Positions 14,308-63,428 of a DNA stretch of 64,000 nucleotides are shown in pieces (the first letter of the stretch is position 1; the number at the start of each line of letters is the position of its first letter). Where the stretch lies: the NCBI GenBank assembly GCA_963727775.1, contig CAVSHB010000001.1, positions 768,001 to 832,000 on the forward strand. The letters are read 5' to 3'. The notes beneath the pieces are model-generated. The model was not told where the DNA came from, did not search any database, and worked only from the letters and a program-made list of their open reading frames with translations. The stretch comes from an uncultured Nitrospiraceae bacterium (GTDB lineage: Bacteria; Nitrospirota; Thermodesulfovibrionia; Thermodesulfovibrionales; SM23-35). The translations under genes were made by a program, and so were the position numbers.

Positions 14308-14399
14308 TCACAGCCCTGTGAGACTTGCAAAGTTAGTGGAAACAGCTATTCTTAATAATATGGGGAATATAGCCCGCTTAATTTATAAAATTTGAGGGC

Positions 14400-14510
14400 G
14401 CCGACAAATACAGTATTTGCGCTCATTCTCGGCCCGGTACAAATCGGGCCTCCGAGGTAAATTCTTTCTTTGAAAGAATTTAAAGCCGCTTAAATACTGT
14501 ATCTGTCGGC
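14400..14510. repeat. About 111-bp palindromic intergenic repeat, copy 2
   Basis: GCCGACAAATACAGTATTT...AAATACTGTATCTGTCGGC. Confidence 0.85.
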
Positions 14511-14540
14511 AATCTTATAATGTAGGATAGGAATAAGACC

Positions 14541-30263: not shown

Positions 30264-31670
30264 TCATGTTTTGAGGAATGATCTGACATCAAGCTGCTGG
30301 TTAACCATCTGTGCCTTGCCTGAACGCGATGAAGGTATTTCATCGACAAACTCTATCGCTATGGATATTGAATCTTTCATTATATCGAGCATGTCGTCAA
30401 GACAGACCTTGATTTTTATCGTGTCACGGTCTGTATATCGTTCTCCCCGTGAGATGAACAACGCTGCTCTCCCCGGCTCTTCCTGATAAAACTGGAACTG
30501 TTGCACATTGGGAAAGGTCTTTATCCATGGCATGAGCCGAGGTATGACTTCTCCCCCGCGGCCGACAAGGAAATCATTGACCCGTCCATATAGCGAATCG
30601 ACCACCACGTGGTAACGACCACAACTCGGACAAAAATCGTTGCTCTCCTTCACAATATCGCCGGTGCGATACCGAATGAACGGCATACACTGATTGGCAA
30701 AGCCCGTAGCAATAATCTCTTTATATCCGTACGCCGAATCAATGAACTCCGTGTACCCATATAGAGGGTGAAGATGCATATTGTTTGTATGTTCGCACTC
30801 TCCACCGATCACCGAATTCTCATTCATGGCATACATAGAAAAGACCCTGACGCCGAAAGCCTCTTCTATCAAGTTTCTCTGCCAGTCGTAAATGGTCTCG
30901 GCATAGGATATCATTGACTTGAGTCCTGGAAAAACAGCAGAGCTTTCATGTTTGATATAAGAGGAGATTATGGCGAGTACCGAAGGGAAACCCATTATGT
31001 ACTCTGGATCAAAGTCAGTTATCATTCTCACGAAACGACTAAGCCAATTAGGGGTAAGATGGCGTATAGACAGTATGAGTTTGTTTCCATATCTCATATA
31101 AGGAAGGGATATGTTTTTACCATGGCTTACCATTGGCCAGAACATAACTTCTTTTACCCCTGGGACATAGCCTGTTCTTCCAAGGATATTTTTCCTGAAA
31201 GCGAGAAAAGCGGCCTTAAGTGACTTGTCCGTGTATATTTCCAGTGGAATCCCCGATGAACCACTTGTGGACCTTAGCATCAGTGCCGTCATTGGAAGAC
31301 GCTTGTCAATCATCTTTGCTGACGACTTTCTGACTTCTTCACGAAGGAGAAATGGAATTTTCCTGAAATCATCGAAATCCTTCATCTTTTCGGGATGAAA
31401 ATCAATTGCCGAAAATATATCTCTGTAATAATACACATTTTTTGCTGCGTGGATAAGGAGATTCTTTGTTTGCTCAAACTGGTAATTCCTGAATGTCTCG
31501 AAATTCCAGCCTTCGGATGCCTTAAGAAGCATTGTCCATCGGACGAAAGCTCTACCCAAGAGCATCCTATTCCGTATATCATATGGTATTGTTTCATACA
31601 CGTTATGAGCCATTTTTTCGAGCAGGCTGCTCTTCTTCAAAAACCTCGTTATAAACTCCTGGATATTCAT
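30264..31670 (-). CDS. Phenylacetate-CoA ligase/CapK-family enzyme, paralog 2
   Basis: TSGSSGIP, MPFIRYRTGD, GRVND; clearly similar to 20328-21728. Confidence 0.88.
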   Translation of the reverse strand: MNIQEFITRFLKKSSLLEKMAHNVYETIPYDIRNRMLLGRAFVRWTMLLKASEGWNFETFRNYQFEQTKNLLIHAAKNVYYYRDIFSAIDFHPEKMKDFDDFRKIPFLLREEVRKSSAKMIDKRLPMTALMLRSTSGSSGIPLEIYTDKSLKAAFLAFRKNILGRTGYVPGVKEVMFWPMVSHGKNISLPYMRYGNKLILSIRHLTPNWLSRFVRMITDFDPEYIMGFPSVLAIISSYIKHESSAVFPGLKSMISYAETIYDWQRNLIEEAFGVRVFSMYAMNENSVIGGECEHTNNMHLHPLYGYTEFIDSAYGYKEIIATGFANQCMPFIRYRTGDIVKESNDFCPSCGRYHVVVDSLYGRVNDFLVGRGGEVIPRLMPWIKTFPNVQQFQFYQEEPGRAALFISRGERYTDRDTIKIKVCLDDMLDIMKDSISIAIEFVDEIPSSRSGKAQMVNQQLDVRSFLKT

Positions 31671-32368
31671 TACATATTGTATTTTATACGCGAAATTATT
31701 TTCTTATAGATAATTTTACCCGTTTCTTTTTTCAATATTGAGATGTTTCGCCATCAATGATATTTCCTGGTCATTATGTTCTATATATTAATATATTGTT
31801 CTCTTGTTACCGTCCTGCAGAATTAGAGTTAAGATTATTTTTCCCTAAATATCTCATCAACGATCCCCTCTGCAAATTATTTCATAATATCAAATTACAA
31901 TACATTTAATTCATGCAGCTTCTTGAAGAACTTGGGCCGGTTCATGAAGTTCTGACCGTGGATTATATGACACAAGATTATAGGATCAAGCAGAAATGCA
32001 TATTTATGTGAACTCTTTAGAAAGATATATATTTTTTGTATCTATTGGCGCATTACCTGCTCGCAACCGCCTCGCAACCGCTTGTTTCTTCTGACATTGC
32101 TCGGAGTGAAAACTTCCGAAAAGAACAGATTCATAATAGAAAGGAACGTACATGATGATTCTCTCTTTTCCTTGCTTGGAGGCAAAAGTCACACTCACCA
32201 ATTGTCTTATATGTGTGTTGAGTAGATGAGGAAATCTTGAGTGGTCAGGTCTTTCTGTTTTTAACAGTTAGACATAATGTATTAAACCTGTCCAACCTTA
32301 AGGCACGTGGATTAAGCTTTAAGGTGAAAAAACCATAGGCTCAGAGCCACAATTAAGGAGGACAGGTT

Positions 32369-33496
32369 ATGGATAAGTATAGCAGCAAATATGTAGGAAT
32401 GGATGTGCACAAGGAAACGATAGCAGTAGCGATAGCAAAGGAAGGACGCGGGGAGCCGGTTTATTACGGAGAGATACCCAATAACGGTGAGTCAATAAGG
32501 AAGCTGGTTAAAAAAGTGGGTTCGAACGGGGAACGAGTATCGTTTTGCTATGAAGCCGGACCATGTGGGTATGAAGTATACCGTCAGTTGATTGATCTTG
32601 GTCAGAGGTGTGATGTGGTTGCTCCATCGCTTATCCCAAGGAAATCAGGAGATCGCGTGAAGACAGATCGGAGGGATGCTAACACTCTGACTCGGTTACA
32701 TCGTGCGGGAGAACTGACGCCGGTATGGGTTCCGGATAAAGAGCAGGAAGCGATGAGAGATTTAACCCGAGCCCGTGAAGATATGAAGACTATGGAAGGA
32801 CATGCCAAACAGCGGCTTGGAGCATTCCTTCTGCGTCATGGAAAGAGATATCCTGGGAGGAGTAAATGGACGCAGGCGCATTTTCGATGGCTGGAAGGGA
32901 TAAAGTTTGAGATTCCCGCACAGCAGCTTGTTTTCCAGGAGTATGTTGATACGGTCAAGCAAATGCAAAGGCGCGAGGCTTCACTGGAAGAAGAAATGCG
33001 TCACGCAGTAGAAGGGTGGTCTTTGGCGCCTGTAGTAACAGGTCTGATGGCACTTCGGGGTGTCGACATCATTACAGCAATGACGGTCATTGCCGAACTG
33101 GGCGACATCAGTCGCTTTGAATCTCCTCGTCAGCTCATGGCTCACCTGGGGTTAGTTCCGAGTGAGCACTCAAGCGGCAGTCGTCGCCAGCGAGGCGGGA
33201 TAACCAAAACCGGCAATGGACATGCAAGGCGTGTGCTTATAGAAGCTTCGTGGTGTTATCGATTGCCGGCACGCAAGACGGCTCATTTGCAGCGACGGGC
33301 AGAGAAGACCAGCGAAGCGGTACAAGCCATTGCATGGAAGGCGCAAAAACGGTTATGCAAGAGATATTGGTACTTGATCAATAAGGGGAAACTTCCGGTT
33401 CAAGCATGTACCGCTGTAGCACGTGAACTGAGCGGCTTTATTTGGGCAATTGCATGTGACGTAATGGGAAAGACTAATGCCTGTATCACCAGATAA
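32369..33496 (+). CDS. IS110-family recombinase
   Basis: GMDVHK, YEAGPCG, KTDRRD, HSSG. Confidence 0.95.
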   Translation: MDKYSSKYVGMDVHKETIAVAIAKEGRGEPVYYGEIPNNGESIRKLVKKVGSNGERVSFCYEAGPCGYEVYRQLIDLGQRCDVVAPSLIPRKSGDRVKTDRRDANTLTRLHRAGELTPVWVPDKEQEAMRDLTRAREDMKTMEGHAKQRLGAFLLRHGKRYPGRSKWTQAHFRWLEGIKFEIPAQQLVFQEYVDTVKQMQRREASLEEEMRHAVEGWSLAPVVTGLMALRGVDIITAMTVIAELGDISRFESPRQLMAHLGLVPSEHSSGSRRQRGGITKTGNGHARRVLIEASWCYRLPARKTAHLQRRAEKTSEAVQAIAWKAQKRLCKRYWYLINKGKLPVQACTAVARELSGFIWAIACDVMGKTNACITR

Positions 33497-33589
33497 GGAT
33501 AAAACGAATTGACGACAGAACGAAACTATCGGTGTTGTCTTCCGGGGCTCCAAAAGAGGTGGAGTGTTTCTCCGCTCCTCCAGACAACG

Positions 33590-33830
33590 CTATTTATTTG
33601 GAAAATGTGCACTTCGGCCAGGGCAGCAGTCGGTGGGGAGATCCCTCGTACCTACTATGAGGCGCCTGAATATAGGATGACCCTCGATGTTAGACAGAGG
33701 CAGCTCCACGACGAAAATAAGTCATGCGGTACCCAACCCGCGTATATCAGAGTGATCTACCGTCGTTTATCACTGCTGTTCTGCCCTAAGTTCACACGCT
33801 CAAAGGAGACCATATAAGAGGCAATAAAAA
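33590..33830 (+). ncRNA. Bridge RNA candidate in the right non-coding end
   Basis: Contains TACCTACT (complementary to target AGTAGGTG) and ATATCAG (matches the donor end). Confidence 0.65.
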
Positions 33831-34185
33831 TACCCACTTGACAGGTTTAATACATATCAGTAGGTGAAATTGATGTCCGACCTTGCTGAACAATCCTCAC
33901 CACGATCATATCTGTTGCCGATGAATGTTTCTACCAGAATTTCACGCCGGGGAAACGTGACCAACTGCAGGGTGATCTAAACGGGTCACAATATCGGTGT
34001 CACTAAGGTCAGCATAATTCAGGGCGTACTATGCAGTTATGACGAACCGAAATTTTTGAGAGTTACTGTGAGAAATTTTTTTGTCCAGTCCACATAGAAA
34101 CAAACGATTTCAAAAGTCATCCTCTACGATGATTATTATTTAAAATAATCACGTGCACTTAGTAGAATTTTTGTACGCAACAAGC

Positions 34186-34214
34186 TTGACGATTAGGAAT
34201 TAATCCTATATAGT
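34186..34214 (+). promoter_or_regulatory. Promoter with Fur/PerR-like palindrome in the spacer
   Basis: TTGACG-N17-TATAGT; TAGGAATTAATCCTA at 34194-34208. Confidence 0.6.
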
Positions 34215-34221
34215 TTAAACT

Positions 34222-34635
34222 ATGGAATTATTTTATCGGAAATCCAAAGAGCATGGTCTGAAAATAACCCCCCAGCGTACCGCTATCTATCAGGAACTTT
34301 TGAAAGCAAAGAACCACCCGTCTGCCGATGACATTTATAAAAGGATAGTAAAGAAGATTCCAAATATATCATTTGATACAGTAAACAGAACCCTCCTGAC
34401 ATTCTCCAAAATAGGGATTATAAATGTAGTTGAGGGGTACGGGCAAGCAAAGCGATATGATCCTGATATGGATATTCATCATCATTTCAGATGTATTCAG
34501 TGTGGCAGCATAATAGACTTTCACAACAAGGAGTATGCCAACATAACTGTCCCTGAAGAAATCAATAAACAGTTTACGGTGCTAAGTAAAAAGGTAGTTC
34601 TTGAAGGTCTTTGCAGTAAGTGCAGAAAAGGGTGA
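34222..34635 (+). CDS. Fur-family regulator (PerR-like)
   Basis: LKITPQR, HPSADDIY, HHHFRCIQC, CSKC; directly upstream of katG. Confidence 0.9.
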   Translation: MELFYRKSKEHGLKITPQRTAIYQELLKAKNHPSADDIYKRIVKKIPNISFDTVNRTLLTFSKIGIINVVEGYGQAKRYDPDMDIHHHFRCIQCGSIIDFHNKEYANITVPEEINKQFTVLSKKVVLEGLCSKCRKG

Positions 34636-34861
34636 TATTTTTTCTTCTTTAGTAGTATTTATTACTATATAGTAATTTTATATAATCTAGAGGAGGTGAT
34701 GACAATGCGTTAAGATAACTTTTCCCCGCTCGTGAATAATAAATAACGACAAATCTACACAAATGGTTGGGTTTGCCGTGATGATAGTGCTTGATGTGGC
34801 TTTTGGTTAAACACATAAGCAAAGATCTCTTTTACTGTTAAAGACAAAAAACCAATGTTAG

Positions 34862-37111
<2,250 letters not shown>

Positions 37112-37222
37112 CCGTAGCATAAACGTCTTCAATGTTCCGGGCAGCCTTTTTACGAGGCACAATGAAAGATATTATGATATGGAACCGCTGGAACCCACCG
37201 GTTCCGAAAAAGGAGGTAGATA

Positions 37223-37612
37223 ATGACAGGTTACGTTGGGCCAATTGAGAAACAAACATTAGATAACAACTTCTTCCGCAAGGTGCTGTTCACCGGTAAA
37301 TACAACCAGCTGGTGGTGATGTGTCTGCAAGGAGGCGAGGAAATCGGCAATGAGGTACATCCGACCGTCGACCAGTTCTTCCGCGTCGAAGAAGGGAAGG
37401 CCAAATTCGTTTTTAATGACAAGGAAGAGCACCTTGCGGGTGATGGGGACGCAGTGATAGTTGCTGCTGGAACATACCATAACGTTATTAATACGTCCCC
37501 AAACAAACCACTCAAGCTCTACACAATTTATAGTCCACCCAATCATCCTGATGGGACCGTACATAAAACAAAGGCTGAAGCAGATGCTGCTGAGGCTGCG
37601 GAACATCATTGA
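37223..37612 (+). CDS. Cupin domain protein
   Basis: IGNEVH...DQFFRVEEG...HNVIN...YTIYSPPNH. Confidence 0.88.
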   Translation: MTGYVGPIEKQTLDNNFFRKVLFTGKYNQLVVMCLQGGEEIGNEVHPTVDQFFRVEEGKAKFVFNDKEEHLAGDGDAVIVAAGTYHNVINTSPNKPLKLYTIYSPPNHPDGTVHKTKAEADAAEAAEHH

Positions 37613-38066
37613 ATTTCTGATCATGGGTACTCCCTTCCCTTATGGGGAGGGAATGAACTGGTAAATGCTCATATTCAATTTAAGTGATCAACAATTTGAG
37701 ATGAATTGATGTGCGCAGTTGACCGAAAAATGTTGTGGTTGAGTGGACCCCCTAAAAAGTCACCACTTGTGGCTGAAAGTGAGATTATCGAGTCGATCCA
37801 GGTGACGCGACTTTTTAGATTAAACCCACGGATTGAATAGCGGCCCTAGTAAGAGGATTAGAAACGGTAACTATTACTGTGGCGGAATGTCCACAGTATC
37901 ACGTAGTAGGTGTTGTCGAGAAAAGTGGCATGCGCCTTACGGGGCGAAAGAAACACAGCATTTCAGAGAGTCCTGAAAGACAACACTGCTTCCTCTTCTA
38001 AGTCACGCCTATGATATACTGAACAAAAGTGAAGATTATGACTTGATAGTCAATAGGAGAAATCCC

Positions 38067-38609
38067 ATGGATGCGCTTCTGCTAATTGATTTCCAAAAAG
38101 ACTTCTTTGCTGCAGACGGCCGGATGTCTCTCGGTTCTGAACAAGCAGAACATCTTATCGTGGTTGCCGATAGGCTGATTAATTATTTTCAGAAGAATAA
38201 AGGTGTAGTCATATTTATTGGTAACGAGTTCAACAAAGCCGACTTTGTTGGGAATCTCTTCAGAAGGTTTGCTGCGCTGAAGGGCAGTGACGGCGCACAA
38301 CTCGACTCGCGCATTAATAGTGAAGGTTATCCTTATTTCCCAAAGGCAAAAGCGGATGCATTTTCTAATCCTGATTTGGATACCTATTTGAAAAAGCATG
38401 CAGTGAGTAATATATATCTGTGTGGAGTATACTCGGAAGGCTGCATCAGGGCAACGGCTCTGGGTGCAAAGAAGAGAGGCTATCAAGTCTCTTTGGTAGT
38501 TGATGCAGTTTTATCCAACAGGAGATTTAAACACGATTGGGCGTTGTCGTATTTGAGCAACCGCGGCGTTACCCTAGTGAGTAGTGAAAGTCTATTGATG
38601 CACGCTTAA
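38067..38609 (+). CDS. Isochorismatase-family cysteine hydrolase
   Basis: ALLLIDFQKDF, K..DAF, GVYSEGCI. Confidence 0.88.
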   Translation: MDALLLIDFQKDFFAADGRMSLGSEQAEHLIVVADRLINYFQKNKGVVIFIGNEFNKADFVGNLFRRFAALKGSDGAQLDSRINSEGYPYFPKAKADAFSNPDLDTYLKKHAVSNIYLCGVYSEGCIRATALGAKKRGYQVSLVVDAVLSNRRFKHDWALSYLSNRGVTLVSSESLLMHA

Positions 38610-38818
38610 GAGAAATCCGCTGTTTCTCATAAAATGAAATATTCCGTTGTTAATGCCTTGCGCTGTCCTTCCTTGTAGTCCGCAGGGGGAGTATCGCGTC
38701 GAAGGGTGTTTGTTATGTTTTTGTAAATCAATACTCTCTTTCCAGACGCCAGCAAATTTCAAGTTAATATTCGGCTCGATATGATAAAATACGTAAAATG
38801 CTATAAGGAGGACTGTAT

Positions 38819-39259
38819 ATGAAAACGAAATTATCCTTAGTTGTGGTGATGCTTGCGATTGCGGTATGTGCAGGCTTGGTCTTCGCAGCTGGGGCGGAAA
38901 AGACATCAAAGGAGAGTGCTACAAAAGGATCTATTCTTTACGTTTGTAATTGTGGCGCTAAGTGCAAGTGCAATACTGTGTCGACAAAACCGGGGAAATG
39001 TGCCTGTGGCAAAGATCTTGTTCCGATGCATGTTTTGAAGATCGACAAAGATGAGGCTCTTCTCTGTACATGCGGAAAGGGATGCAAATGTAAAATTGAC
39101 GAGGCGGATCCCACTAAGTGTGGATGCGGGAAGCCCGTAAAGAGAGTGAGCCTGAAAGGCCTTTATGTCTGTAATTGCGGTCATGGTTGCAACTGTAATA
39201 CCATTTCTGATAAACCAGGCAAGTGCAAATGTGGTAAAGAGTTAAGGAAAGTCGAATAA
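38819..39259 (+). CDS. Exported Cys-rich repeat protein (metallothionein-like)
   Basis: Signal peptide followed by three repeats each carrying three CxC pairs. Confidence 0.85.
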   Translation: MKTKLSLVVVMLAIAVCAGLVFAAGAEKTSKESATKGSILYVCNCGAKCKCNTVSTKPGKCACGKDLVPMHVLKIDKDEALLCTCGKGCKCKIDEADPTKCGCGKPVKRVSLKGLYVCNCGHGCNCNTISDKPGKCKCGKELRKVE

Positions 39260-39473
39260 TTAATTGCCTTATCAACGTGTATTGCATCGTATATTATTAG
39301 CGAACACCTATTTTGTTTATTATTAAGAATACCATGAAGGCTGTCGATAGATAACCTTCGTGGTATTCCTGCTCATAGCTGCATGCCCAAGAGTATTTAG
39401 CCAACTGATTCCGATTGATTCCAGCCGGCAATGCCAGTGTATTCCGGCCACTTGTTCCGAGTTCGGCCACTAA

Positions 39474-41093
39474 CCCAAAAAGTGCAGTTGACCTAAAATA
39501 ATATCCCCGAAGAAATTCTCCTTTCGTATTAGAATCAATAGGTTTACCCGACCATCAACTCTAAACGAAAGGAGAATAGAAATATGCAGTCAAAATGTAG
39601 CACAAAGATCGAAATAAATAAAGTAAGGATTGGATTTACGGAGAAGAAGATGACGGCATATGGGGGATTCAGTTTATTGGCTGCATTTTTTGAAAAGATC
39701 AAATTGAGAGGAATTTTGCAAGAGGTGATTCCGATCCATGAGAGTTCACCCAATGGAATGGGGATATACAGCAAGGTATTGGCATACATCCTTCTGATCT
39801 ATGCGGGAGGCAGCAGGTTTTCTCATCTACTTTATCTTGGTTGGCAGGAGATTTTCACCGATCTTTTTGCAGTGAAGAGGCTTCCTATCGCCTCGACGAC
39901 ATTGGGCAGGCTTTTCAGGAAGATCAGAAAACTGAAGGAAGTGGAAGAGATGTCGGAGGGATTATGGGGATACTTGAAGAGATTGATCCCCTGGAAAGAG
40001 CTCAAAGAGGACTGGTTGACGTTCGATTCTACAGTCCTTGAGCGATACGGAAAACAGGAGGGAGTCAAGAGGGGATATAACCCGAAGAAGAAGGGCCGTG
40101 GTAGCCACAGCCCGCTTCTGGCATTTCTTAACAGAAACAAGTATGTGATAAATCTTTGGAACCGCCCCGGCAACGTGATGTCATGGAACAACATTATTGG
40201 ATTTTTTGAATCCACATGGCAGAGGATCAACGGTCATATCGATATCAAGGGCATTATTGCAGACAGTGGATTTTATCTTAGGGAGTTCATCGAACTGCTT
40301 GAGAAGAGAGAATTAGTATATATCATAGCTGCTCGCCTATATCGTCCGCTGCAGAGGATAATCTACGCACAACAAAACTGGGCACAGGTAGAAGAAGGGA
40401 TATGGATCACTGAGTTCTTCTTCCAGCATGTAGAGTGGATAATCGACAGGAGGTTTATTGCAGTGCGCCAGGATGTCAAGAAGAGACCGCACGCGATGGG
40501 AAAAGAGTTGTCTCTTTTCGGAGATGAGTTTGATACAGGGCATTATCGTTATAGCGTATGGATAACCAATTCACATGATTCTACATATGAGGTATGGAAG
40601 CAATGCAGGCATAGGGCGAACGATGAGAATACCATCAAGGAACTGAAAGAGGATTTTGCACTCGGCGGGTTCTCGATGAAGTATTTCTACTCAACGGAGG
40701 CGGCTATGCTTATTCGGGTATTCATCTACAATCTGTTTGTCCTGTTCAGGCATCAGATACTCGGTCAAAAAGAAAAGACAGAACGTTTGAAAACCTTACG
40801 GTACAAGTATCTTGTCCTTCCAGCCCAATTAGGATGGGATGGAAGGAAACCTGTATTGCGGATTTCTGTCTTTACGCAGAAAGTACGATCAAAACTGCGC
40901 TACCTCTTTAACCGCGTGGGACAATACTTTCCCCCCAGTTTTGGTAATTGCACTGCATTTAGATAAAAAGAACATAATTTTCAGGAGGTGGAACAAGAAA
41001 CAGCATCAGTATTAGCTTTTATATCGACAAATCAGCCAATGCCTTGATAGGCTTGACTCTATAGGTATGCCTATAGCAAACGCATTTTTCGGG
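39474..41093 (+). mobile_element. IS1380-family element, copy 1, target duplication CTAA
   Basis: Ends CCCAAAAAGTGC.../...GCATTTTTCGGG; CTAA on both sides; 1620 bp. Confidence 0.88.
39584..40966 (+). CDS. IS1380-family DDE transposase
   Basis: TAYGG, FDSTV..YGKQEG, ADSGFY, RANDENTIKELK. Confidence 0.9.
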   Translation: MQSKCSTKIEINKVRIGFTEKKMTAYGGFSLLAAFFEKIKLRGILQEVIPIHESSPNGMGIYSKVLAYILLIYAGGSRFSHLLYLGWQEIFTDLFAVKRLPIASTTLGRLFRKIRKLKEVEEMSEGLWGYLKRLIPWKELKEDWLTFDSTVLERYGKQEGVKRGYNPKKKGRGSHSPLLAFLNRNKYVINLWNRPGNVMSWNNIIGFFESTWQRINGHIDIKGIIADSGFYLREFIELLEKRELVYIIAARLYRPLQRIIYAQQNWAQVEEGIWITEFFFQHVEWIIDRRFIAVRQDVKKRPHAMGKELSLFGDEFDTGHYRYSVWITNSHDSTYEVWKQCRHRANDENTIKELKEDFALGGFSMKYFYSTEAAMLIRVFIYNLFVLFRHQILGQKEKTERLKTLRYKYLVLPAQLGWDGRKPVLRISVFTQKVRSKLRYLFNRVGQYFPPSFGNCTAFR

Positions 41094-41469
41094 CTAACAG
41101 GGATATCCTTGGTGAGTTTCTCTCCACCAGAAACACTTAGGAAGATGTGCTTCCTGTCCCCCACAAAGTCCAGAATCTAAAAAATGGTGCGTAGTATAAT
41201 AGATAATTCTCACCGGACGGAAACATCGCCCACCTCGTTTACCGAATATTCAAATTCGATAAAATGCTTTATCTTTCACGCCGCAGAAACCCACTCGCTC
41301 AAAGCAGGAGGGGAGAGACTGGACAAAGTCCTCCCCTCCAAATATTTTTTCCGGCCATATTGACTAAATTGAATTATGTGAGAAAATTATCTATAAGGGA
41401 CTGATTATTAAGAATGTTGATCTCATTTTTTCTTATGACACTCAAAAGAAAAAATAAAGGAGGTATCAA

Positions 41470-42027
41470 ATGAAATACTCAGCCTTATTACGGGCACTCC
41501 TGCTTTCCGGACTCATTACCGGCGGTATCGTCTTTTCAGGCTGCATAGGAAAGTCGGATGGAGCACACAGCGTATCAGCGCCGGGTCCGATCAAGGTCTA
41601 TTCTGCAGAAAAAGGGGGCTACGTCATGAGCGAAACTGTTAATAAGAGCAATGAAGAATGGAAAAAACTGCTGACACCCGAACAGTATCACATCATGCGG
41701 GAAAAGGGGACCGAGCGGGCATTTTCCGGAAAATACGCAGACTTCCACGAGCATGGCATTTATCGTTGCGCGGCCTGCGAGCTAGACCTGTTCAGGTCGG
41801 AAGACAAATATGAGTCAGGTACGGGATGGCCGAGCTTCACGGCGCCGATCGCCGCGGAGAACATAATCACCAAACCGGACAATACCCTTTTCAGTCATCG
41901 TACAGAAGTACTTTGCCATCGCTGCGGCAGCCATCTCGGCCACGTTTTTGACGATGGTCCCAAACCGACAGGGCTGCGCTACTGCATGAATTCGGCTGCC
42001 CTGCAATTCGTGGTAACCAAGAAATGA
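41470..42027 (+). CDS. msrB: Methionine-R-sulfoxide reductase with lipoprotein-like signal
   Basis: GTERAF, SGTGWPSF, HLGHVFDDGP, RYCMNS; N-terminal FSGC. Confidence 0.95.
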   Translation: MKYSALLRALLLSGLITGGIVFSGCIGKSDGAHSVSAPGPIKVYSAEKGGYVMSETVNKSNEEWKKLLTPEQYHIMREKGTERAFSGKYADFHEHGIYRCAACELDLFRSEDKYESGTGWPSFTAPIAAENIITKPDNTLFSHRTEVLCHRCGSHLGHVFDDGPKPTGLRYCMNSAALQFVVTKK

Positions 42028-42051
42028 TTCATCTGTCAGAGAGGAGGCATA

Positions 42052-42660
42052 ATGAAAATACTTATTACTGCGATGTTGGGACTTTCAGTCTTCCTCATCG
42101 CAACCACCACAGTCATGGCTGCACCTAATCTTGCGAAGGCAACTTTTGCGGGAGGTTGCTTCTGGTGTATGGAGCACCCCTTCGATGAGATTCCCGGCGT
42201 AGTTTCGGTAACATCCGGATACACTGGTGGGCAGAAAAAGAATCCCACCTACGAAGAGGTTTCGGCTGGAGGAACCGGACACGCTGAATCAGTGCAAATC
42301 GTCTATGACCCGACACGAGTTAGCTATGAACAGCTCTTAAACATCTTTTGGCACAACATCGACCCGACTTCAAAGGACCGGCAGTTCTGTGATTCCGGGC
42401 ATCAGTATCGAAGTGCTATTTTTTATCATTCTGAGGAACAGCACGAGCAGGCTCTGCAGTCGAAGGCATTATTGGAAAAGAACAAGCCCTTCAAAGAACC
42501 TGTCGTAACCGAGATTGTTCAGGCCACCGAGTTCTACCCGGCAGAGGATTATCACCAACACTATTACAAGAAGAACCCGATCCGATACAAATACTACCGT
42601 TTCAGATGTGGTCGTGACCAAAGACTTAAGGAGCTGTGGGGCAAAGCTGCAGGGCATTGA
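42052..42660 (+). CDS. msrA: Methionine-S-sulfoxide reductase with signal peptide
   Basis: AGGCFWC, GHAESV, FYPAEDYHQ. Confidence 0.95.
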   Translation: MKILITAMLGLSVFLIATTTVMAAPNLAKATFAGGCFWCMEHPFDEIPGVVSVTSGYTGGQKKNPTYEEVSAGGTGHAESVQIVYDPTRVSYEQLLNIFWHNIDPTSKDRQFCDSGHQYRSAIFYHSEEQHEQALQSKALLEKNKPFKEPVVTEIVQATEFYPAEDYHQHYYKKNPIRYKYYRFRCGRDQRLKELWGKAAGH

Positions 42661-42674
42661 TGGGATAGAATGAT

Positions 42675-42971
42675 ATGAAGAACCGAATAACTCAGTCTTT
42701 GACTCTTTTTGTTTTGATGCTGTTTCTCTTTTCAGGTTATGGGGTTTCTCTTGCACAAGATGCTAAAACATCCGAGGTTATTTTTTATGTGAAATGATTT
42801 GACGTTGGCAAGGAGGCCCTGGAAGGGCTGAAGGGAGTGAAGAGAGTTGAAAAAGGCTTTCGCAACTTTAAAGAGATAAATACTGTTTATTATGATCCAG
42901 CAGTAATTACGATTAAAGAAATGGAAATAGCCTTAAAGAAGGCAACTACTTACCTGGGAACAGTTAAGTAG
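42675..42971 (+). CDS. Putative exported selenoprotein with HMA/ferredoxin-like fold (UGA at 42795-42797); absent from the ORF track
   Basis: Manual translation MKNRITQSLTLFVLMLFLFSGYGVSLAQDAKTSEVIFYVK-U-FDVGKEALEGLKGVKRVEKGFRNFKEINTVYYDPAVITIKEMEIALKKATTYLGTVK; hairpin 18 nt after the UGA. Confidence 0.75.
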
Positions 42972-43049
42972 TTAATAACGTAACTGTTCTCAATACAGGG
43001 TTAAATTCGCACATATCCGTGAACTTTATCGACTTGTCATACATGAAGC

Positions 43050-43748
43050 ATGTTAAATAAGACAATCACAAAAAGGATAGTGGTCGTAACCGTCGTGGTC
43101 GGACTCGTAGTGCTTTTTAAGGTTCTCGGACTCGGGCAGTATTTCACGCTCACCTACGTCAAGGCATCTCAGGAGAAATTTGCAGCTGTCTACGCTGATC
43201 ACAGGCTGATGGTAATCATCGCATACATGGTGAGCTATATACTTGTTACCTCATTATCATTGCCGGGTGCTGCCGTAATGACCTTGGCAGGCGGAGCGCT
43301 CTTCGGATTGTTGACGGGAACAATTGTTGTTTCCTTTGCAAGTACGATAGGTGCTACCTTAGCGTGCTTTGTCTCAAGGTCCGTTTTACGCGATTGGGTA
43401 CAAAACAAGTTCGCTGACAAGCTTAAAACAGTTAACGATGGGATAGAAAAAGAAGGAGCATTCTATTTATTCACCCTGAGATTGATTCCCGTCTTCCCGT
43501 TTTGGCTCATAAACCTTGTTATGGGACTGACGAAGATGCCTTTGAAGACCTTTTACCCAGTTTCGCAGGTAGGCATGCTGCCAGGAACCATAGTTTATGT
43601 CAATGCAGGAAAAGAGCTTGCCAAGATCGATTCTCTTTCGGGCATACTTTCCCCCGGGCTAATCCTCTCCTTTGTGCTTCTTGGACTTTTTCCGATAATT
43701 ACCAAGAAATTGCTTGCTTTCTATCAATCTAAGAAATTAAGAACATAG
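43050..43748 (+). CDS. TVP38/TMEM64 (DedA-superfamily) membrane protein
   Basis: LSLPGAAVMTLAGGALFG, LRLIPVFPFWLINL, GMLPGT. Confidence 0.9.
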   Translation: MLNKTITKRIVVVTVVVGLVVLFKVLGLGQYFTLTYVKASQEKFAAVYADHRLMVIIAYMVSYILVTSLSLPGAAVMTLAGGALFGLLTGTIVVSFASTIGATLACFVSRSVLRDWVQNKFADKLKTVNDGIEKEGAFYLFTLRLIPVFPFWLINLVMGLTKMPLKTFYPVSQVGMLPGTIVYVNAGKELAKIDSLSGILSPGLILSFVLLGLFPIITKKLLAFYQSKKLRT

Positions 43749-43773
43749 ATGATTCAGGAATAAGGAGGCCGGA

Positions 43774-45225
43774 ATGGCAAATTACGATTTTGACATAGGA
43801 ATTCTCGGTGGTGGAGCTGCCGGACTTACTGTTGCGTCAGGTGCGGCCCAGTTTGGAGCAAAGACCCTTCTCGTTGAAAAAGAACATGAACTGGGAGGTG
43901 ACTGCCTCCATTACGGGTGTGTTCCAAGCAAAACGCTCATTAGGACTGCACATATCTACCATCTTATGAAGAATGCTGAAAAATACGGTCTTCCACGGGC
44001 AGACCTCAAACGAGTGGATTTCCAGGCAATCGCAGGAAGGATTCAATCTGTAATTAGTGCCATACAGGAACATGATTCGAAGGAACGGTTTTGCAAACTT
44101 GGTGCCAGGGTCGAATTCGGCAATGCAAATTTTACAGACGAACATTTAGTCCGGCTGAACGGTGAGATATTTTCTGCAAAGAGGTGGGTTATAGCCACCG
44201 GGTCATCTCCATTTATCCCGCCGATTGAAGGAATTGATAAAACACCCTATATTACGAACAAAGAACTTTTTTTACTGAAAAGTCTTCCGAAATCCATGAT
44301 CGCAATCGGCGGGGGTCCTATATCAATAGAGATGGCTGAGGCATTCAATCGACTGGGGACAAAAGTGACCGTAGTTGAACTTGCGAATCAGATTCTCGGG
44401 GCTTAGGACAAAGACATGGCTGAGCAGCTTATGAATAGTTTGATATCCGAAGGCATAACATTTCATCTGGGCTCTCTGCCCCTCAGCACAAAAGACCTTG
44501 GTAATGAAAAAGAGTTAATATTTAAAAATAACGAAGGCAAAATCTTAAACCTGAGGGCCGAAACCATACTTGTTGCCGTCGGAAGAAAAGCAAATCTCCA
44601 AGATCTCGGGCTGGAAGATATTTCAATGGAATTCGATAAAAAAGGGTTGAAGATAGACGACAGGCTCAGGACAAATCATAAGCACATCTTTGTTGCAGGG
44701 GATGCAACAGGCTCATATCAATTTACCCATGCAGCTGGCTATGAGGGGGGCATTGTGCTCAGCAACGCTATTCTTCATCTACCGAGAAAAGTGGATTATG
44801 CTTATCTGCCGTGGTGTACCTATACAGACCCTGAACTTGCCAGCATCGGGATGAACGAGAAGAGGGCGGCGGCGGCAGGCATATCATATTCTGTCTGGAC
44901 AGAAGAGTTTAAAACCAATGACCGAAGCCTTGCAGAAGGAGAAGAGACAGGGAGAATAAAGCTTCTCCTTGATGACAATGAAAAGCCTATAGGTATTCAG
45001 ATACTGGGACCAAGTGCGGGGGAACTGATCAGTGAATGGGTTGCGGTCATGAACGGGAATGTGAAGCTATCGACTATCGCATCAGCCATTCATCCTTATC
45101 CTACTCTTGGAGAAATCAACAAAAAGGTTGTGGGATCGTTTTTTTCCGGCAAGATCTTTTCCGAAAAGGTGAAAAAAGCTCTGAAATTCTTCTTCAATCT
45201 GAAGGGGAGAGCATGCGGAGCATAA
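43774..45225 (+). pseudogene. Pyridine nucleotide-disulfide oxidoreductase (LpdA/MerA-like) split by in-frame TAG at 44404-44406
   Basis: GGGAAG, GGDCLHYGCVPSK, then QILGA-TAG-DKDMAE in the same frame, AGDATG, HPYPT. Confidence 0.85.
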
Positions 45226-45914
45226 AGTATTCACAGAAAGAGAAAAAAGTTACAACAAAGCCGGTAGGCTCATGCAAGAAAAACAATGAAACGTTCTTGC
45301 ATGGATAACACCGTGAGTATAAGACGCCAGATTACATCACGGATGTAAGTTTGATGAAGAAGTATGCGGACACCTTTGTGTAATGGTTTTTTTTGGGAAA
45401 CCAACGGTCTCGCTGAAATAGCGGGGCATCGATTAGCAGGTGCACTTGCCGCCGGGCACTAACAATATCGGCTCAGATCTCTTTAGGGCATTTTCGATGA
45501 AAGTTACTTTTGGAATTTCACACGAGTGGAACCGGGGCGGCAAAATTCCCTGAAAGCATTTTTTAATCTCCAGCGTGTCGTAACCACACATAGTACGGGG
45601 CGAAGTCCTTGGCAACGAAAGAATGAGGCCAGTGTGGACTTCTGTGAGAAATTTTTTTTGTCCAGTCCACCTGCTTATAAACACCAAGTAAAATTTAAAA
45701 TTATTGAAGAATACAATCGGGACTAAATACGCCGAAATTTATATATAGAGAGTCCTTCAAATCGAAATAAATAGCTTCCCCGTGAAGAACGGCATTTGTT
45801 TTTTCCGGGAATAAATGGAAGAGAGCACAAATTCATGGATAGCGTTTGTTTCAAGCCATACTGTGCTGTTTCTTTCAGTTGAATCCGAAGAGCACAGATT
45901 GTTGATGCCACCTA

Positions 45915-47505
45915 CTGATATGTATTAAACCTGTCAAGTGGGTATTTTTATTGCCTCTTATATGGTCTCCTTTGAGCGTGTGAACTTAGGGCAGAACAGC
46001 AGTGATAAACGACGGTAGATCACTCTGATATACGCGGGTTGGGTACCGCATGACTTATTTTCGTCGTGGAGCTGCCTCTGTCTAACATCGAGGGTCATCC
46101 TATATTCAGGCGCCTCATAGTAGGTACGAGGGATCTCCCCACCGACTGCTGCCCTGGCCGAAGTGCACATTTTCCAAATAAATAGCGTTGTCTGGAGGAG
46201 CGGAGAAACACTCCACCTCTTTTGGAGCCCCGGAAGACAACACCGATAGTTTCGTTCTGTCGTCAATTCGTTTTATCCTTATCTGGTGATACAGGCATTA
46301 GTCTTTCCCATTACGTCACATGCAATTGCCCAAATAAAGCCGCTCAGTTCACGTGCTACAGCGGTACATGCTTGAACCGGAAGTTTCCCCTTATTGATCA
46401 AGTACCAATATCTCTTGCATAACCGTTTTTGCGCCTTCCATGCAATGGCTTGTACCGCTTCGCTGGTCTTCTCTGCCCGTCGCTGCAAATGAGCCGTCTT
46501 GCGTGCCGGCAATCGATAACACCACGAAGCTTCTATAAGCACACGCCTTGCATGTCCATTGCCGGTTTTGGTTATCCCGCCTCGCTGGCGACGACTGCCG
46601 CTTGAGTGCTCACTCGGAACTAACCCCAGGTGAGCCATGAGCTGACGAGGAGATTCAAAGCGACTGATGTCGCCCAGTTCGGCAATGACCGTCATTGCTG
46701 TAATGATGTCGACACCCCGAAGTGCCATCAGACCTGTTACTACAGGCGCCAAAGACCACCCTTCTACTGCGTGACGCATTTCTTCTTCCAGTGAAGCCTC
46801 GCGCCTTTGCATTTGCTTGACCGTATCAACATACTCCTGGAAAACAAGCTGCTGTGCGGGAATCTCAAACTTTATCCCTTCCAGCCATCGAAAATGCGCC
46901 TGCGTCCATTTACTCCTCCCAGGATATCTCTTTCCATGACGCAGAAGGAATGCTCCAAGCCGCTGTTTGGCATGTCCTTCCATAGTCTTCATATCTTCAC
47001 GGGCTCGGGTTAAATCTCTCATCGCTTCCTGCTCTTTATCCGGAACCCATACCGGCGTCAGTTCTCCCGCACGATGTAACCGAGTCAGAGTGTTAGCATC
47101 CCTCCGATCTGTCTTCACGCGATCTCCTGATTTCCTTGGGATAAGCGATGGAGCAACCACATCACACCTCTGACCAAGATCAATCAACTGACGGTATACT
47201 TCATACCCACATGGTCCGGCTTCATAGCAAAACGATACTCGTTCCCCGTTCGAACCCACTTTTTTAACCAGCTTCCTTATTGACTCACCGTTATTGGGTA
47301 TCTCTCCGTAATAAACCGGCTCCCCGCGTCCTTCCTTTGCTATCGCTACTGCTATCGTTTCCTTGTGCACATCCATTCCTACATATTTGCTGCTATACTT
47401 ATCCATAACCTGTCCTCCTTAATTGTGGCTCTGAGCCTATGGTTTTTTCACCTTAAAGCTTAATCCACGTGCCTTAAGGTTGGACAGGTTTAATACATTA
47501 TGTCT
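45915..47505 (-). mobile_element. IS110-family (IS1111-type) element, copy 2
   Basis: Inverted copy of 32270-33860 with identical protein. Confidence 0.92.
46279..47406 (-). CDS. IS110-family recombinase
   Basis: Protein identical to 32369-33496. Confidence 0.95.
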   Translation of the reverse strand: MDKYSSKYVGMDVHKETIAVAIAKEGRGEPVYYGEIPNNGESIRKLVKKVGSNGERVSFCYEAGPCGYEVYRQLIDLGQRCDVVAPSLIPRKSGDRVKTDRRDANTLTRLHRAGELTPVWVPDKEQEAMRDLTRAREDMKTMEGHAKQRLGAFLLRHGKRYPGRSKWTQAHFRWLEGIKFEIPAQQLVFQEYVDTVKQMQRREASLEEEMRHAVEGWSLAPVVTGLMALRGVDIITAMTVIAELGDISRFESPRQLMAHLGLVPSEHSSGSRRQRGGITKTGNGHARRVLIEASWCYRLPARKTAHLQRRAEKTSEAVQAIAWKAQKRLCKRYWYLINKGKLPVQACTAVARELSGFIWAIACDVMGKTNACITR

Positions 47506-47919
47506 GATATGTGGTTCAAGTTATTGCAACAATGAAGATTTTCGAGAGAACTACGCGTAACGCCAATCATCAGACTGCAGGATTCTACCGCTCGTAATTA
47601 ACATCATCAGGGTATATGTGGGCACTGAATTTTATATTGCCGTAATACCGCAATAGGTACCGATCTTAGATAAACACTCTGCGCTATCGTTCTTGATTAG
47701 CTCCAGATATTGTTTTTCATAATACTTATCGTTCAGCAATATCAAACTTATGTATGCTGTTCGTCTGACCAAATGTAAGAGACATCATGAATAACTGAAC
47801 GAATCAATTCCAAATAATTGGCGAAATCTTCTTAATCACTGTGCCCCCCATGTAAAATAAGGCCGATAGACGAAATGATTATAGTTCTTAATATCATAAC
47901 GTCTCATTAGGGAGAGGTA

Positions 47920-49335
47920 CTAACTTATATCTACGAAATCCCTTATATCCAGCCTCTGGTCTACCATCCTCCACTTTCCTGAAGAGGATTGACTGTCCTT
48001 GTGTACAGCAACCACAATTCTGACCCTATTGCCATAAGGGCCCAGTCTCTTTCTAATCTCGCTCAATACGCTGTCCGTATTCTCCTCTTTGTAATACTCA
48101 GCAGCATATACCCTCAGCTCCACTTTGCCGGGGCGTTCCTGATAGAGTTGAAAGCGCCCGATATTTTCTAAGACCCTGTAATCTATGTCGAGATTGACAG
48201 AGAAAACCTGCCCTTCCGAACCGATGAGAAAATCACCGATGCGCCCATCCATACTTTCCAGCACCTCGTAACGCCTCCCGCACAGAGTACAGGAATTGCC
48301 CTTCCTGGTTATATCCCCGGTCACGTATCTGATAAGGGGCATTGCGTAGTTGATGAATCCGGTTCCGACCAATTCAAACGCAGAACCCCGAACTGGAAGA
48401 TACTCGGCATATCCGTATTGCGGATAGAGATGATAAATACCGGAGTGTTCACATCCACCGCCGTGTATCACCTTCTCTACCATCCCGTAATCAGAAAACA
48501 CCCTGGCTCCAAAGACATATTTGATGATTTCCCTCTGCCATTCATACACATTCTCGGCATAAACAATAACTCCCTTAAGCTTGTTACGCAGTGATTTCCC
48601 TCTATTTTTCACAGATGAGGCGAAAGTTGCGACCGCATAAGGAAAGCCTATGAGATATTCAGGCTTGAAATAGTTGATCATTTCTGTATATTCATCAATC
48701 CATTCATCTACAAAGTAATTGCTCGAAAGGATCAGTTTATTTCCGTATTTCTTCCATGGGAGGCTGTCCTTCTTTCCCTCTCTTATATTCGCTACTAAAA
48801 AAACTGTTCTCGAATGCGGGCTGTATCCGCTCCTGCTCCACAGATCAATTATCGTTGCCCAGTGTTTTTCTTCGGTCTCTTTTGTTCCATAAACTATGAG
48901 TGGAATGCCTGTCGTTCCACTAGTAGATGCCGCAATTAATTTGCTCTTATGAATGTTTTCTGTTATGAATTCATGATGATTTTCTTTTATTGTAACCTTG
49001 TTGATATAGGGCAAAGCCTTAATATCGCTCAAGGCCTGTACCTTCTCCGGTTTAAACCCGTACTCTCCAAATAACTTTCTGTAGTAAGGCACATTTGCCC
49101 CAGCGTGCATCAACAAATCTCTTAATTGTTCGACCTGATAAGCCTCGATCTTATCCCTGTCCCACTTTTCTGACTCTTTCAGGAATCCGAGCCAGTATCG
49201 AAATGTCGGCCCATAGGACCCATAGGAGATACTGTATCTGAACTTCAGTGGGAGTCTCTCTAATACTTCCCTAACGGCCTTTTCAATAACCGAGTTGGAT
49301 TCTATGAATTTCTTAATGATCTCTATGGTACCCAT
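47920..49335 (-). CDS. Phenylacetate-CoA ligase/CapK-family enzyme, paralog 3
   Basis: TSGTTGIP, DYGMVE, MPLIRYVTGD, DGRIGD. Confidence 0.88.
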   Translation of the reverse strand: MGTIEIIKKFIESNSVIEKAVREVLERLPLKFRYSISYGSYGPTFRYWLGFLKESEKWDRDKIEAYQVEQLRDLLMHAGANVPYYRKLFGEYGFKPEKVQALSDIKALPYINKVTIKENHHEFITENIHKSKLIAASTSGTTGIPLIVYGTKETEEKHWATIIDLWSRSGYSPHSRTVFLVANIREGKKDSLPWKKYGNKLILSSNYFVDEWIDEYTEMINYFKPEYLIGFPYAVATFASSVKNRGKSLRNKLKGVIVYAENVYEWQREIIKYVFGARVFSDYGMVEKVIHGGGCEHSGIYHLYPQYGYAEYLPVRGSAFELVGTGFINYAMPLIRYVTGDITRKGNSCTLCGRRYEVLESMDGRIGDFLIGSEGQVFSVNLDIDYRVLENIGRFQLYQERPGKVELRVYAAEYYKEENTDSVLSEIRKRLGPYGNRVRIVVAVHKDSQSSSGKWRMVDQRLDIRDFVDIS

Positions 49336-50486
49336 TACTCAGGATTCTTAACCAACCTTTTGATTTTTCCGAATAAACCTTTTATATATTGGAGCAAGAC
49401 ATTATAAGAAAGCGATTTCAGGCAATAGGTTGCGGAAATAAAATATAGCATACACGTAATTTTTCCGAGCAAATATGTTCCTAATATATATCATGAAAGA
49501 TTTTCGCTCCAAAAACCCATTTTCCGGCCAGATCCATTCTTTCCCGGTCGTATACGACAACATTGCCTCTCCCTTATATCCCCCTGTAACATCCTTATAA
49601 GCAGCATATGGAATGTTCACGCCGCATTCCGAGGATAAACTATTGCTATGAGTTGTCCTCGGATTCATCTCTATAAGCTTATATCTCCCGTCCCTTTGGT
49701 CTAATTTAAATTCGATAAAAGAAATGCCGTGATAACCGAAGATTCTTAATACCCGAAGACCCATATCGACTATTCGAGGGTTCTTTACACTCACAAAATG
49801 GGTACCGGTGCCAAGATCGGGAGGGTATTGTTTTAATTTCCTGCTAACAAACATGGCCGTTGCTTCATCTTTGTTATTAATATAAGACTGGAACTCATAC
49901 AGTTGCGATGCATCACCTTCTATAAACTCTTGAACAATCATTTTAAATCCATCGGCAGTATACTTTTTAAATTTTTCCATTAATTCCTTGCCGGAGTTAC
50001 ATTGAACAGCCTTAATTCCATATCGAATGAAAAATGCTTCTGAATAAGCAGGCTTGAGAATTAAAGGGAACTTAATGTCATCGGAAAGCGCCCCAATATC
50101 TTTTTCATCCCTTGGATAAAATGTATCGGGCAACGGAATGCCATGCGCAGCAGCTTTTTTATATTGCCTCTCCTTATCTACCATATGTTCTGTTATATCC
50201 CACCCTGAAAATGGAATTTTATAATAAGGCTCAAGCTTATTCCTTGATTTTGCTATCACAGTTACATAAGAATCTTTCGCAGGAAATAAAATTTTAATGC
50301 CTTCGATTCTTTTGCCGATATCCATCAGAAATTCCGTAAGATCAAATTCTGAATGTAATGGATTAGGGCAAACAACGCTTTCTGAGACAAACTTCGAATG
50401 AAATCCTATTGCATATGGATTATGGTCTATTGCAAGTATTGAGATATCCTTCCCTCCAAGACTTCTTATAATTCCTAACCCATTAA

Positions 50487-52106: not shown

Positions 52107-52254
52107 TTAACATCGCAGCCGAGAACAATCGCCCAATGATTTGAATTCATATTTCAGTCTGCCCTTCGTCCAAGGAGAAAGCCCTCATGAACCAGCTTAA
52201 GCCTACAGGTCTCAGAATCGATGACATTCTGCCGCCATGCGTCCGGATTCACGA

Positions 52255-52722
52255 TTATCCCGTCTTTGCAAAGTCTCTCATATTCAGTTTCTGGTCCACC
52301 ATGATGAACTTGCCCGAAGGTTTCCTGGGAATACCGTCGACGAAGACCACTTCGATATCGATACTATCCTTCAACGGCCCGAGCATCTCTGCAATTTTTG
52401 ACTTTATGTGAAGAGTATCCGATTCGGAATACGTTTCAGCTCTCACTATCTTTAAATATGCCCTTCCCGGCTCGTCCTGGAAAAACTGATATTGCTTGGT
52501 GTTAGGAAAAATCTTTATCCATGGCATAAGTCTCGGAATGATTTTTCCTTCCCTATTAATGAGGTAGTCGTTTATCCTTCCCTCTATCCTGTCGATGAGC
52601 TGATGATGTCGTCCGCAAAGAGGGCAAGAAGCTTCGCCCCGGAGTGCGATATCTGATGTTTTGTATCTTATCAGCGGCATTGCATAGTTCAAAAAACCGG
52701 TTCCCACTATCCCAGTAAGCAA
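52255..52722 (-). pseudogene. C-terminal fragment of a CapK-family ligase, paralog 4 (5' truncated)
   Basis: GTGFLNYAMPLIRYKTSD...IEGRIND...IPRLMPWIK; about 310 N-terminal residues missing relative to the paralogs. Confidence 0.85.
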
Positions 52723-63205: not shown

Positions 63206-63293
63206 GTAATTATTCTATATGTAAAGGTATCCAGGCTGTCAAATTAAAAGAGGACTCCAAGCAAAACCCACTTAATATATAAAATTTGTAGAT

Positions 63294-63404: not shown

Positions 63405-63428
63405 TCTTATTCATGAAATAATTGAAGT

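Follow-up and report, generated by a model that had tools for sequence, protein, structure and literature searches.

An intact IS110-family insertion sequence whose predicted bridge RNA likely directs insertion at GTT-AG-TAGGT and whose two copies likely bracket a 12-kb inversion

An IS110-family element in two inverted copies

The window analysed here (the whole stretch of DNA, 64,000 nt) carries the same 1,597-nt stretch twice, on opposite strands, at 32270-33866 (+) and 45909-47505 (-), and a whole-genome search found only these two copies of the element in the 3.43-Mb genome. Both stretches end in AG-TAGGTG, and this comparison of the copies confirmed the original prediction that each copy is followed by these letters. 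The other motifs named in that prediction were also found at the positions given for them. The element and its parts are:

32270-33860 (+): copy A of the insertion sequence, both AG cores included; its ends are common to relatives with other flanks
45915-47505 (-): copy B, identical to copy A; transposase at 46279-47406, guides at 46119-46126 and 46082-46086
32270-32271 (+): left core AG (CT on the other strand)
33859-33860 (+): right core AG
32277-32292 (+): left sub-terminal inverted repeat, 16 bp
33840-33855 (+): right sub-terminal inverted repeat
32369-33496 (+): IS110-family DEDD transposase, 375 aa, with D12, E62, D100, D103 and S269 intact

The encoded protein carries the Pfam domains PF01548 (DEDD RuvC-like, N-terminal) and PF02371 (C-terminal) and reaches 261.7 bits against NCBIfam NF033542, for which the cut-off is 140. 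Moreover, its residues 261-270, GLVPSEHSSG, correspond to the serine motif G-x-x-P----SG given for the IS110 family in the text of PMC11187229. These matches, together with AG at both ends, bear out the proposal of an IS110-family recombinase with an AG core, and the element is an intact, real member of this known RNA-guided class.

The 16-bp inverted repeats are set in from the cores, by 5 nt on the left and 3 nt on the right, and the non-coding ends measure 97 nt on the left and about 360 nt on the right; a 102-codon frame over the right end had no Pfam match. Apart from the 2-bp AG core at both ends there is no longer target duplication, the left flank of copy B being the exception. Across relatives the element ends are conserved and the flanks vary widely. 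Among the best loci compared, the nearest relatives that have named records belong to Nitrospirota, several of them to Thermodesulfovibrionales, and the host is probably a member of that group. Note that recent activity is suggested by one observation, the 100% identity of the two copies.

For the comparisons below we used the best 79 of 163 genome stretches and the best 80 of 488 metagenome stretches that were confirmed. Including the two window copies, 161 loci had a transposase match; the RNA anchor was present in 111 of them and absent in 50, and flanks were usable for covariation in 105 loci on the right and in 88 on the left. Three loci (L024, L027 and L028) were omitted from the donor-end, handshake and nearest-neighbour pair analyses. 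In these three, 192 nt spanning the transposase end and the target loop are duplicated internally, which is not so in their sister copy L026. Arrays of several target loops were considered and rejected, since the doubled anchors correspond either to this duplication or to lone motif matches, and the upstream anchor matches in L069, L091, L094, L103 and L127 were treated as spurious.

A predicted bridge RNA with target and donor guides

The right non-coding end is predicted to encode a bridge RNA with two loops, and the joined ends of the element to form a promoter:

33607-33795 (+): predicted bridge RNA, about 190 nt, with ends placed from the outer stem
33619-33630 (+): outer stem 5' arm, pairing with 33772-33783; contains most of the left guide mistakenly proposed before
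33637-33707 (+): target-binding loop, with stems GGAG/CTCC and CCTC/GAGG around two 11-nt guide strands
33650-33656 (+): right-flank guide ACCTACT, complement of the core AG plus +1 to +5; analogue of the IS621 left target guide
33689-33693 (+): left-flank guide GTTAG, the same letters as -3 to -1 plus the core; analogue of the IS621 right target guide
33709-33765 (+): donor-binding loop, with a tentative and weak second donor guide, GTC, at 33721-33723
33744-33750 (+): donor guide ATATCAG, the same letters as the last 5 nt of the element plus the core
33838-33843 (+): -35 box TTGACA of the predicted junction promoter
32273-32278 (+): -10 box CATAAT of the predicted circle-junction promoter

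In the predicted fold, the right-flank and left-flank guides face each other in one internal loop. In the named structure 88.9% of the cells are paired and 22/36 pairs have two-sided changes, which none of 500 shuffles matched. The outer stem columns are 63-82% paired, being poorly aligned in the distant rows, and in 46/46 sequences the 5' arm of this stem has better pairing with the 3' arm of the same sequence than it has on average with those of the other sequences. An Rfam search of 32100-34000 gave no match near the gathering score.

The right target guide had been predicted from the complement TACCTACT at 33649-33656, of a kind that a random 8-mer of AG plus six letters found in this end in 2.6% of 2000 draws. 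Covariation confirmed it. Thus, 33649-33654 formed 243/348 Watson-Crick pairs with flank positions +1 to +6 in 58 representatives, against a shuffle mean of 105 and maximum of 139. By position, +1 to +5 paired in 52, 51, 55, 40 and 35 of the 58, each above its own shuffle maximum, and +6 was at chance level, not above shuffle, in the same representatives. Moreover, TAGGT was present in 6/6 unique right flanks of elements with the guide ACCTA and in 0/82 of those with other guides. A small held-out set of seven guides gave 27/35 pairs, with a shuffle mean of 10.3 and a shuffle maximum that was also 27. A fit one base out of register, or a poor fit, was seen at 7/99 sites; the loci with a right guide one base out of register are L004, L005, L006, L108, L109, L110, L113, L126 and L079. 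Three distant relatives from elsewhere in the phylum (L215, L216 and L218) carry the guide AACCTACTA, also before TAGGTG, and by their sequence this target is used in a second lineage.

On the left side the result was different from what had been proposed. From the covariation, the true left guide is GTTAG at 33689-33693, downstream of the right guide: 33687-33691 agreed with the left flank at 163/275 positions in 55 representatives (shuffle mean 101, maximum 124). The matches at -1, -2 and -3 numbered 54, 50 and 34 of 55, and those at -4 and -5 were not above shuffle. In support of both guides, an unbiased scan of all columns returned the eight right- and left-guide positions as its top eight signals. 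When kinship was reduced by taking 21 disjoint nearest-neighbour pairs from 43 elements, both targets followed 31/51 changes in the right guide and 20/28 changes in the left guide.

The original prediction had instead placed the left guide in AGCAGTCGG, at 33625-33633, a segment that resembles the left flank of copy A at 8/9 positions with wobble. However, a match to this end at least as good (>=8/9 with wobble) was given by 54% of 2000 random 9-mers ending in AG. The segment does not fit the left flank of copy B, and 33625-33631 gave 86/364 pairs with the flanks against a shuffle mean of 83, without covariation. Targets followed 0/9 of the changes within it, and it is identical in 13/19 close relatives that together have 18 different left flanks. 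It pairs instead with 33772-33783 as an arm of the outer stem. This placement is almost certainly wrong, and of the claim that the guides match both insertion sites the right flank stands and the left flank does not. A match to a flank found by eye, with wobble allowed, is often due to chance.

As to the donor side, the match of ATATCAG to the element's own end, seen before, was supported by three other lineages in which the guide changes with the donor end. The donor end is otherwise nearly invariant, so that these three lineages carry the support for the donor guide: guide and end agree at 5/5 positions in L046/L062 (ATCCT with ATCCT), 4/5 in ISSfr2 (ATGAG with ATCAG) and 3/5 in L057 (ATGGA with ACCGA). 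In L022 and L049-L051 the search pattern did not find a donor guide. A second donor guide would comprise at most the weak GTC. The joined ends do create TTGACA-N18-CATAAT, as noted before, and TTGAC and (C,T)ANNAT boxes with a 17-19 nt spacer are present in 46/53 unique junctions, the window's own included. Contigs from 8/21 sequencing runs, which can show presence and not absence, contained none across the element and no joined ends.

Because the letters of the predicted guide RNA change along with the insertion sites in about 55 relatives, the protein is likely an RNA-guided recombinase of the known kind. Overall, we consider it quite probable that this is an intact IS110-family insertion sequence whose predicted bridge RNA, through the guides at 33650-33656 and 33689-33693, directs insertion at GTT-AG-TAGGT, and that its copies bracket a 12-kb inversion.

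Right-end-only remnants without a transposase occur in L081 (about 1500), L082 (1503) and L083 (about 1510). Those in L082 and L083 start exactly at the AG of the left guide, where the guide DNA resembles the left junction; this suggests a deletion between the true left junction and the DNA of the guide.

Host repeats, a likely swap of flanks and the left junction of copy B

The flanks of the two copies contain the following features:

33861-33866 (+): TAGGTG, host target sequence and end motif of an intergenic repeat, present in IS-free homologues
32216-32269 (+): intergenic repeat F2, left flank of copy A, matched in 5/317 genomes of the order
47513-47566 (-): intergenic repeat F1, left flank of copy B, matched in 27/317 genomes of the order
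33861-45914: segment between the copies, 12,054 nt, likely inverted, with perR-like, katG, msrB and msrA genes and one IS1380 copy
47506-47512 (-): ACATATC, identical to the last 7 nt of the element, replacing a 9-nt host spacer

That TAGGTG might be part of the element had been named as a reason to doubt the prediction. IS-free homologues carry TAGGTG, which places it outside, and contigs matching the left flank of copy B continue into an IS-free site with this motif (X5). The repeats F1 and F2, of about 55-65 nt, end in (A/T)GT(A/C)GGTG (loci L252-L275 and L277-L280). They share no gene neighbourhood, and Rfam searches over them in 13 loci gave no repeat match, finding an unrelated tRNA and c-di-GMP-I riboswitch nearby. 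We rejected F1 as a structured RNA or attC-like hairpin, since it has no consensus fold (mean z about +0.45). Several relatives with guides of the TAGGTG or GAGGTG type sit in similar repeats, and a related motif is present in 6/62 left flanks. In L280 (569-1282, -), a TIR/SEFIR-domain gene lies between F2 and F1 in the same orientation, in a cassette-like arrangement.

Comparison with IS-free homologues suggested that the flanks of the two copies have been exchanged. Thus, the left flank of B joined to the right flank of A aligns without a break to an IS-free paralogue in the same genome (C1:1055088-1055348; 265 nt, 89%, E 6e-79). In the same way, A-left joined to B-right aligns to L277, an IS-free locus in another genome of this family, with no gap at the core (206 nt, 78%, E 4e-42). 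Moreover, a 93% relative of the element (L088) lies between an F2-like left arm and a homologue of B-right. Since A-left is continuous with B-right, and B-left with A-right, in IS-free homologues, the 12-kb segment between the copies, with perR-katG and msrAB, has likely been inverted. And since the flanks are likely swapped, the present flank pairs would not be the original targets. In the order of events that we propose, one precise insertion would have occurred at A-left/B-right and one at B-left/A-right, after which the segment between the inverted copies would have been turned round, the simplest route being homologous recombination by the host. Inverted copies of insertion sequences commonly recombine by this route.

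Other features of the window are recorded here as observations. Identical inverted IS1380-family copies lie at 39471-41097 (+), inside the likely inverted segment, and at 50483-52109 (-). Each keeps its own 4-bp duplication, CTAA and TTAA. Phenylacetate-CoA-ligase-like paralogues are found at 30264-31670, 47920-49335 and 52255-52722, the last being a fragment beside the second IS1380 copy. An FAD-containing, dihydrolipoamide dehydrogenase-like oxidoreductase at 43774-45225 is split in two frames (43774-44406 and 44416-45225), and a tandem repeat with a 174-nt period (59076-60071) lies inside the 793-codon frame 58118-60499 (-). A dispersed repeat of 110-138 nt, at 3740-3850, 14373-14511 and 63267-63537, with a 33-nt inverted pair at 63297 and 63505, is possibly a small non-autonomous element.

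The left junction of copy B is abnormal. A donor-like flank matching at 7/7 positions was seen only at B among 92 unique sites, in a census with some rows out of register; the null expectation is 5e-5 per site, and one other site, L123, matched at 6/7 and was left as chance, having a mismatch at -1. The spacer between F1 and the core measures 9 nt in 12/12 F1 copies with the end motif (of 25 aligned) and 7 nt in B, and the -1 base of B mismatches the left guide, as at only 4/83 left flanks. The first 2-4 bases of this flank could be host, so that 3-7 nt are likely donor-derived. A 16-nt pattern for further donor-junction sites was found in 4/317 genomes, in three of them with no element nearby, and gave no second case.

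The left guide region ATGTT pairs with the element's own donor end ATATC, with two wobbles, and for this reason the right junction of the element would be a near-cognate target. The scar of 5-7 nt at B was likely left by this right end, and a tandem dimer that collapsed at a short homology would be one way to produce it. A different account would have no inversion at all: modular repeat arms would have been shuffled at TAGGTG, and site B would be a chance donor-like target, reached through wobble or the donor loop. The five-position pairing just mentioned fits this account, as does the finding, in the text of PMC13626964, that the donor loop of IS621 alone supports insertion and excision. Short matches in the unswapped pairings fit it as well: B-left with B-right matches L259 over 80 nt (79%), and A-left with A-right matches C1:1491341 over 61 nt (77%). 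However, these reach only 18 and 14 nt right of the core, whereas the swapped pairings match over 150-212 nt there, and both the spacer of B, 2 nt short of all 12 homologues, and its unusual -1 base argue against a natural site. We likewise lowered the idea that site B was a natural donor-mimic target, since the homologues have a 9-nt host spacer. We regard the account without an inversion as quite improbable and retain the likely inversion.

Assembly could in principle produce the same picture, either by misorienting the 12-kb segment, as identical inverted repeats can do, or by circle reads that altered the consensus at the donor-like 7 nt. The left junction of copy A, however, is not altered like that of B, and the size of the assembly's 4 contigs, 0.4-1.6 Mb, suggests that the reads exceeded the repeat in length. 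That the swap, the 7 nt or both are artefacts of this kind seems distinctly unlikely.

If the inversion is real, it could also have arisen with the duplication of the element in one RNA-guided replicative event, by direct strand transfer into an inverted target 12 kb away. Such an event would give the end state observed: a pair of copies in inverted orientation with their flanks swapped, and a left junction at B that is imperfect. The reported abilities of related enzymes make it conceivable: CazIS110-1 performs direct strand transfer that keeps the donor copy (bioRxiv 10.1101/2025.10.25.684509), and IS621 inverts DNA between oppositely oriented donor and target in E. coli (PMC11208160). The nearby IS1380 pair, having kept its own 4-bp duplications, also speaks for it. 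Nevertheless, homologous recombination between identical 1.6-kb inverted copies leads to the same end state and is common, the sections covered of the CazIS110-1 report describe new copies and no inversions, and this is one case only. We consider the single replicative event unlikely. The broader proposal, that the recombinase itself made the 12-kb inversion, or targeted its own right junction and so left the donor-junction scar at B, is doubtful, and inversion by host homologous recombination remains our preferred reading.

Relation to IS621 and to other IS110-family elements

IS621 and ISCro4 share with the present element the DEDD plus serine active site and two loops with two guides each, the second donor guide here being tentative. 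On the other strand, they also share the CT core with a variable first base and the handshake bases. The proteins are distant (28-33 bits), and in IS621 the RNA lies upstream of the gene and the repeats are 2-3 bp, whereas here the RNA lies downstream, the repeats are 16 bp and the target is on the opposite strand. From this analogy, we think that the system is probably IS621 read on the other strand, with AG as the CT core of IS621. The 5' guide (UACCUACU) would then be the analogue of the long left target guide of IS621, and the 3' guide (GUUAG) that of its short right target guide, with the handshake AC directly after it. Exchange would begin on the bottom strand, the transposase gene being read on the top strand. 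As in IS621, the element would excise or copy out as a circle, the joined ends would make a promoter, and RNA and transposase would be expressed. One further feature belongs to this reading:

33694-33695 (+): AC, the predicted handshake dinucleotide by analogy to PMC11208158; the two donor bases that follow the core are the same

Base 33694 is the first donor base after the core in 42/44 representatives and the first target base in 4; because it equals an invariant donor base, it cannot covary. With the exchange, the pairs at the handshake go from 1.5 to 1.9; of the 44 representatives, 22 gain pairs, 14 stay the same and 8 lose pairs.

The only core variant found was AA (TT on the other strand). 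Elements with TT as the core letters of the guide had AA at 10/11 right junctions and AG at all 8 left junctions found, and those with CT had AG at all 81 right junctions. Note that about four lineages account for the AA-core sites, and that L163 and L167, with TT guides and AG junctions, are exceptions. The left-end pattern required AG, and censuses without that rule found no left AA. According to the text of PMC11208158, IS621 tolerates a change at the first core base, keeps the T and is cut 3' of this invariant T. If the cut is made there, AA on the right with AG on the left is the product to be expected of the first-exchanged strand. This pattern would also fit the mainly single-stranded integration described for CazIS110-1 (bioRxiv 10.1101/2025.10.25.684509). 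Under the other-strand reading, natural AA-core insertions would thus record which strand was exchanged first.

Among named elements, the transposase has 55% identity to that of ISSfr2 and 50% to that of ISEc45. ISSfr2 shares the RNA scaffold, the AG core and the placement of the guides, which in ISSfr2 fit its own site. It differs in its target, CAACT-AG-TGGA, and in the donor end, GAG before the core. ISSfr2 was not found named in the main text of the literature searched, and ISSso6 and ISPye17 are neighbours of ISSfr2 and ISEc45 in the tables of PMC11208160 and PMC11187229. The Tnp domain of the representative of the ISCARN28 cluster (PMC11208160, Supplementary Table 1) agrees with this protein at 58/74 residues by hand count. 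ISCARN28, one of six elements for which Durrant et al. (PMC11208160) drew a bridge RNA, also resembles the present element, compared by protein domain and text, in a right-end RNA with target and donor guides. The same article predicts a bridge RNA, mostly at the right end, for 93% of IS1111-group elements.

The original prediction called the element IS1111-type, and this held for the layout and failed for the transposase. The 16-bp repeats (7-17 bp in the group), the long downstream non-coding region and the guide order are those of IS1111. As described in PMC11187229, the IS1111 seekRNA elements ISEc11, ISKpn4 and ISPa11 likewise have a downstream non-coding region, sub-terminal repeats and a junction promoter. 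Their guide order also applies here, the top-strand match (33650-33656) lying 5' of the bottom-strand match (33689-33693), and the matches overlap in both. However, the seekRNA transposases in that source have 330-350 aa and the one here 375 aa. Its identity is 23.6% to IS5075 and 23.3% to IS4321, that is, 23-24% against 50-55% to ISEc45/ISSfr2, which does not agree with the strict IS1111 group of Siddiquee et al. Because the protein is far from IS5075 and IS4321, we file the element outside strict IS1111, and on its sequence we place it in an ISCARN28/ISSfr2/ISEc45 subgroup of the IS110 family with an IS1111-type layout. The papers may differ on this point: Durrant et al. (PMC11208160) appear to list ISCARN28 with the IS1111 group, and the source-data order of Siddiquee et al. 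(PMC11187229) has ISSfr2 and ISCARN28 among the IS110-side names.

Two elements of Pseudomonas putida offer further comparisons. For ISPpu9, recombination takes place at an AG dinucleotide and the targets are REP repeats (PMC12288879), and copies of ISPpu10 bound large rearrangements, which in the account consulted are amplifications and not an inversion (bioRxiv 10.64898/2026.03.19.712850). The targets of ISPpu9 and ISPpu10 are REP hairpins, whereas the F1 repeat here has no fold.

Siddiquee et al. (PMC11187229) took the reversed guide order to mean that the same mechanism should not be assumed for the two groups. The other-strand reading is a direct prediction on this point, and it would explain the reversed order separating seekRNA from bridge-RNA systems as an effect of orientation. 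In the text passages covered on these elements we did not find this equivalence stated, and it may be implicit in a published figure.

The RNA-guided class itself is known; what this analysis adds is a guide map backed by covariation, the other-strand reading, the likely inversion and the donor scar. The likely swap also illustrates how targets can be misread when the two flanks of a multi-copy element are taken as a pair. If the recombinase did make the inversion or the scar, the locus would preserve, in nature, an RNA-guided rearrangement that went further than simple insertion, at an oxidative-stress gene cluster. Bridge recombinases are in development for genome editing and the tested members are few; the present analysis gives a guide map for the widespread ISCARN28/ISSfr2/ISEc45 subfamily, with about 48 distinct natural right-flank guides.
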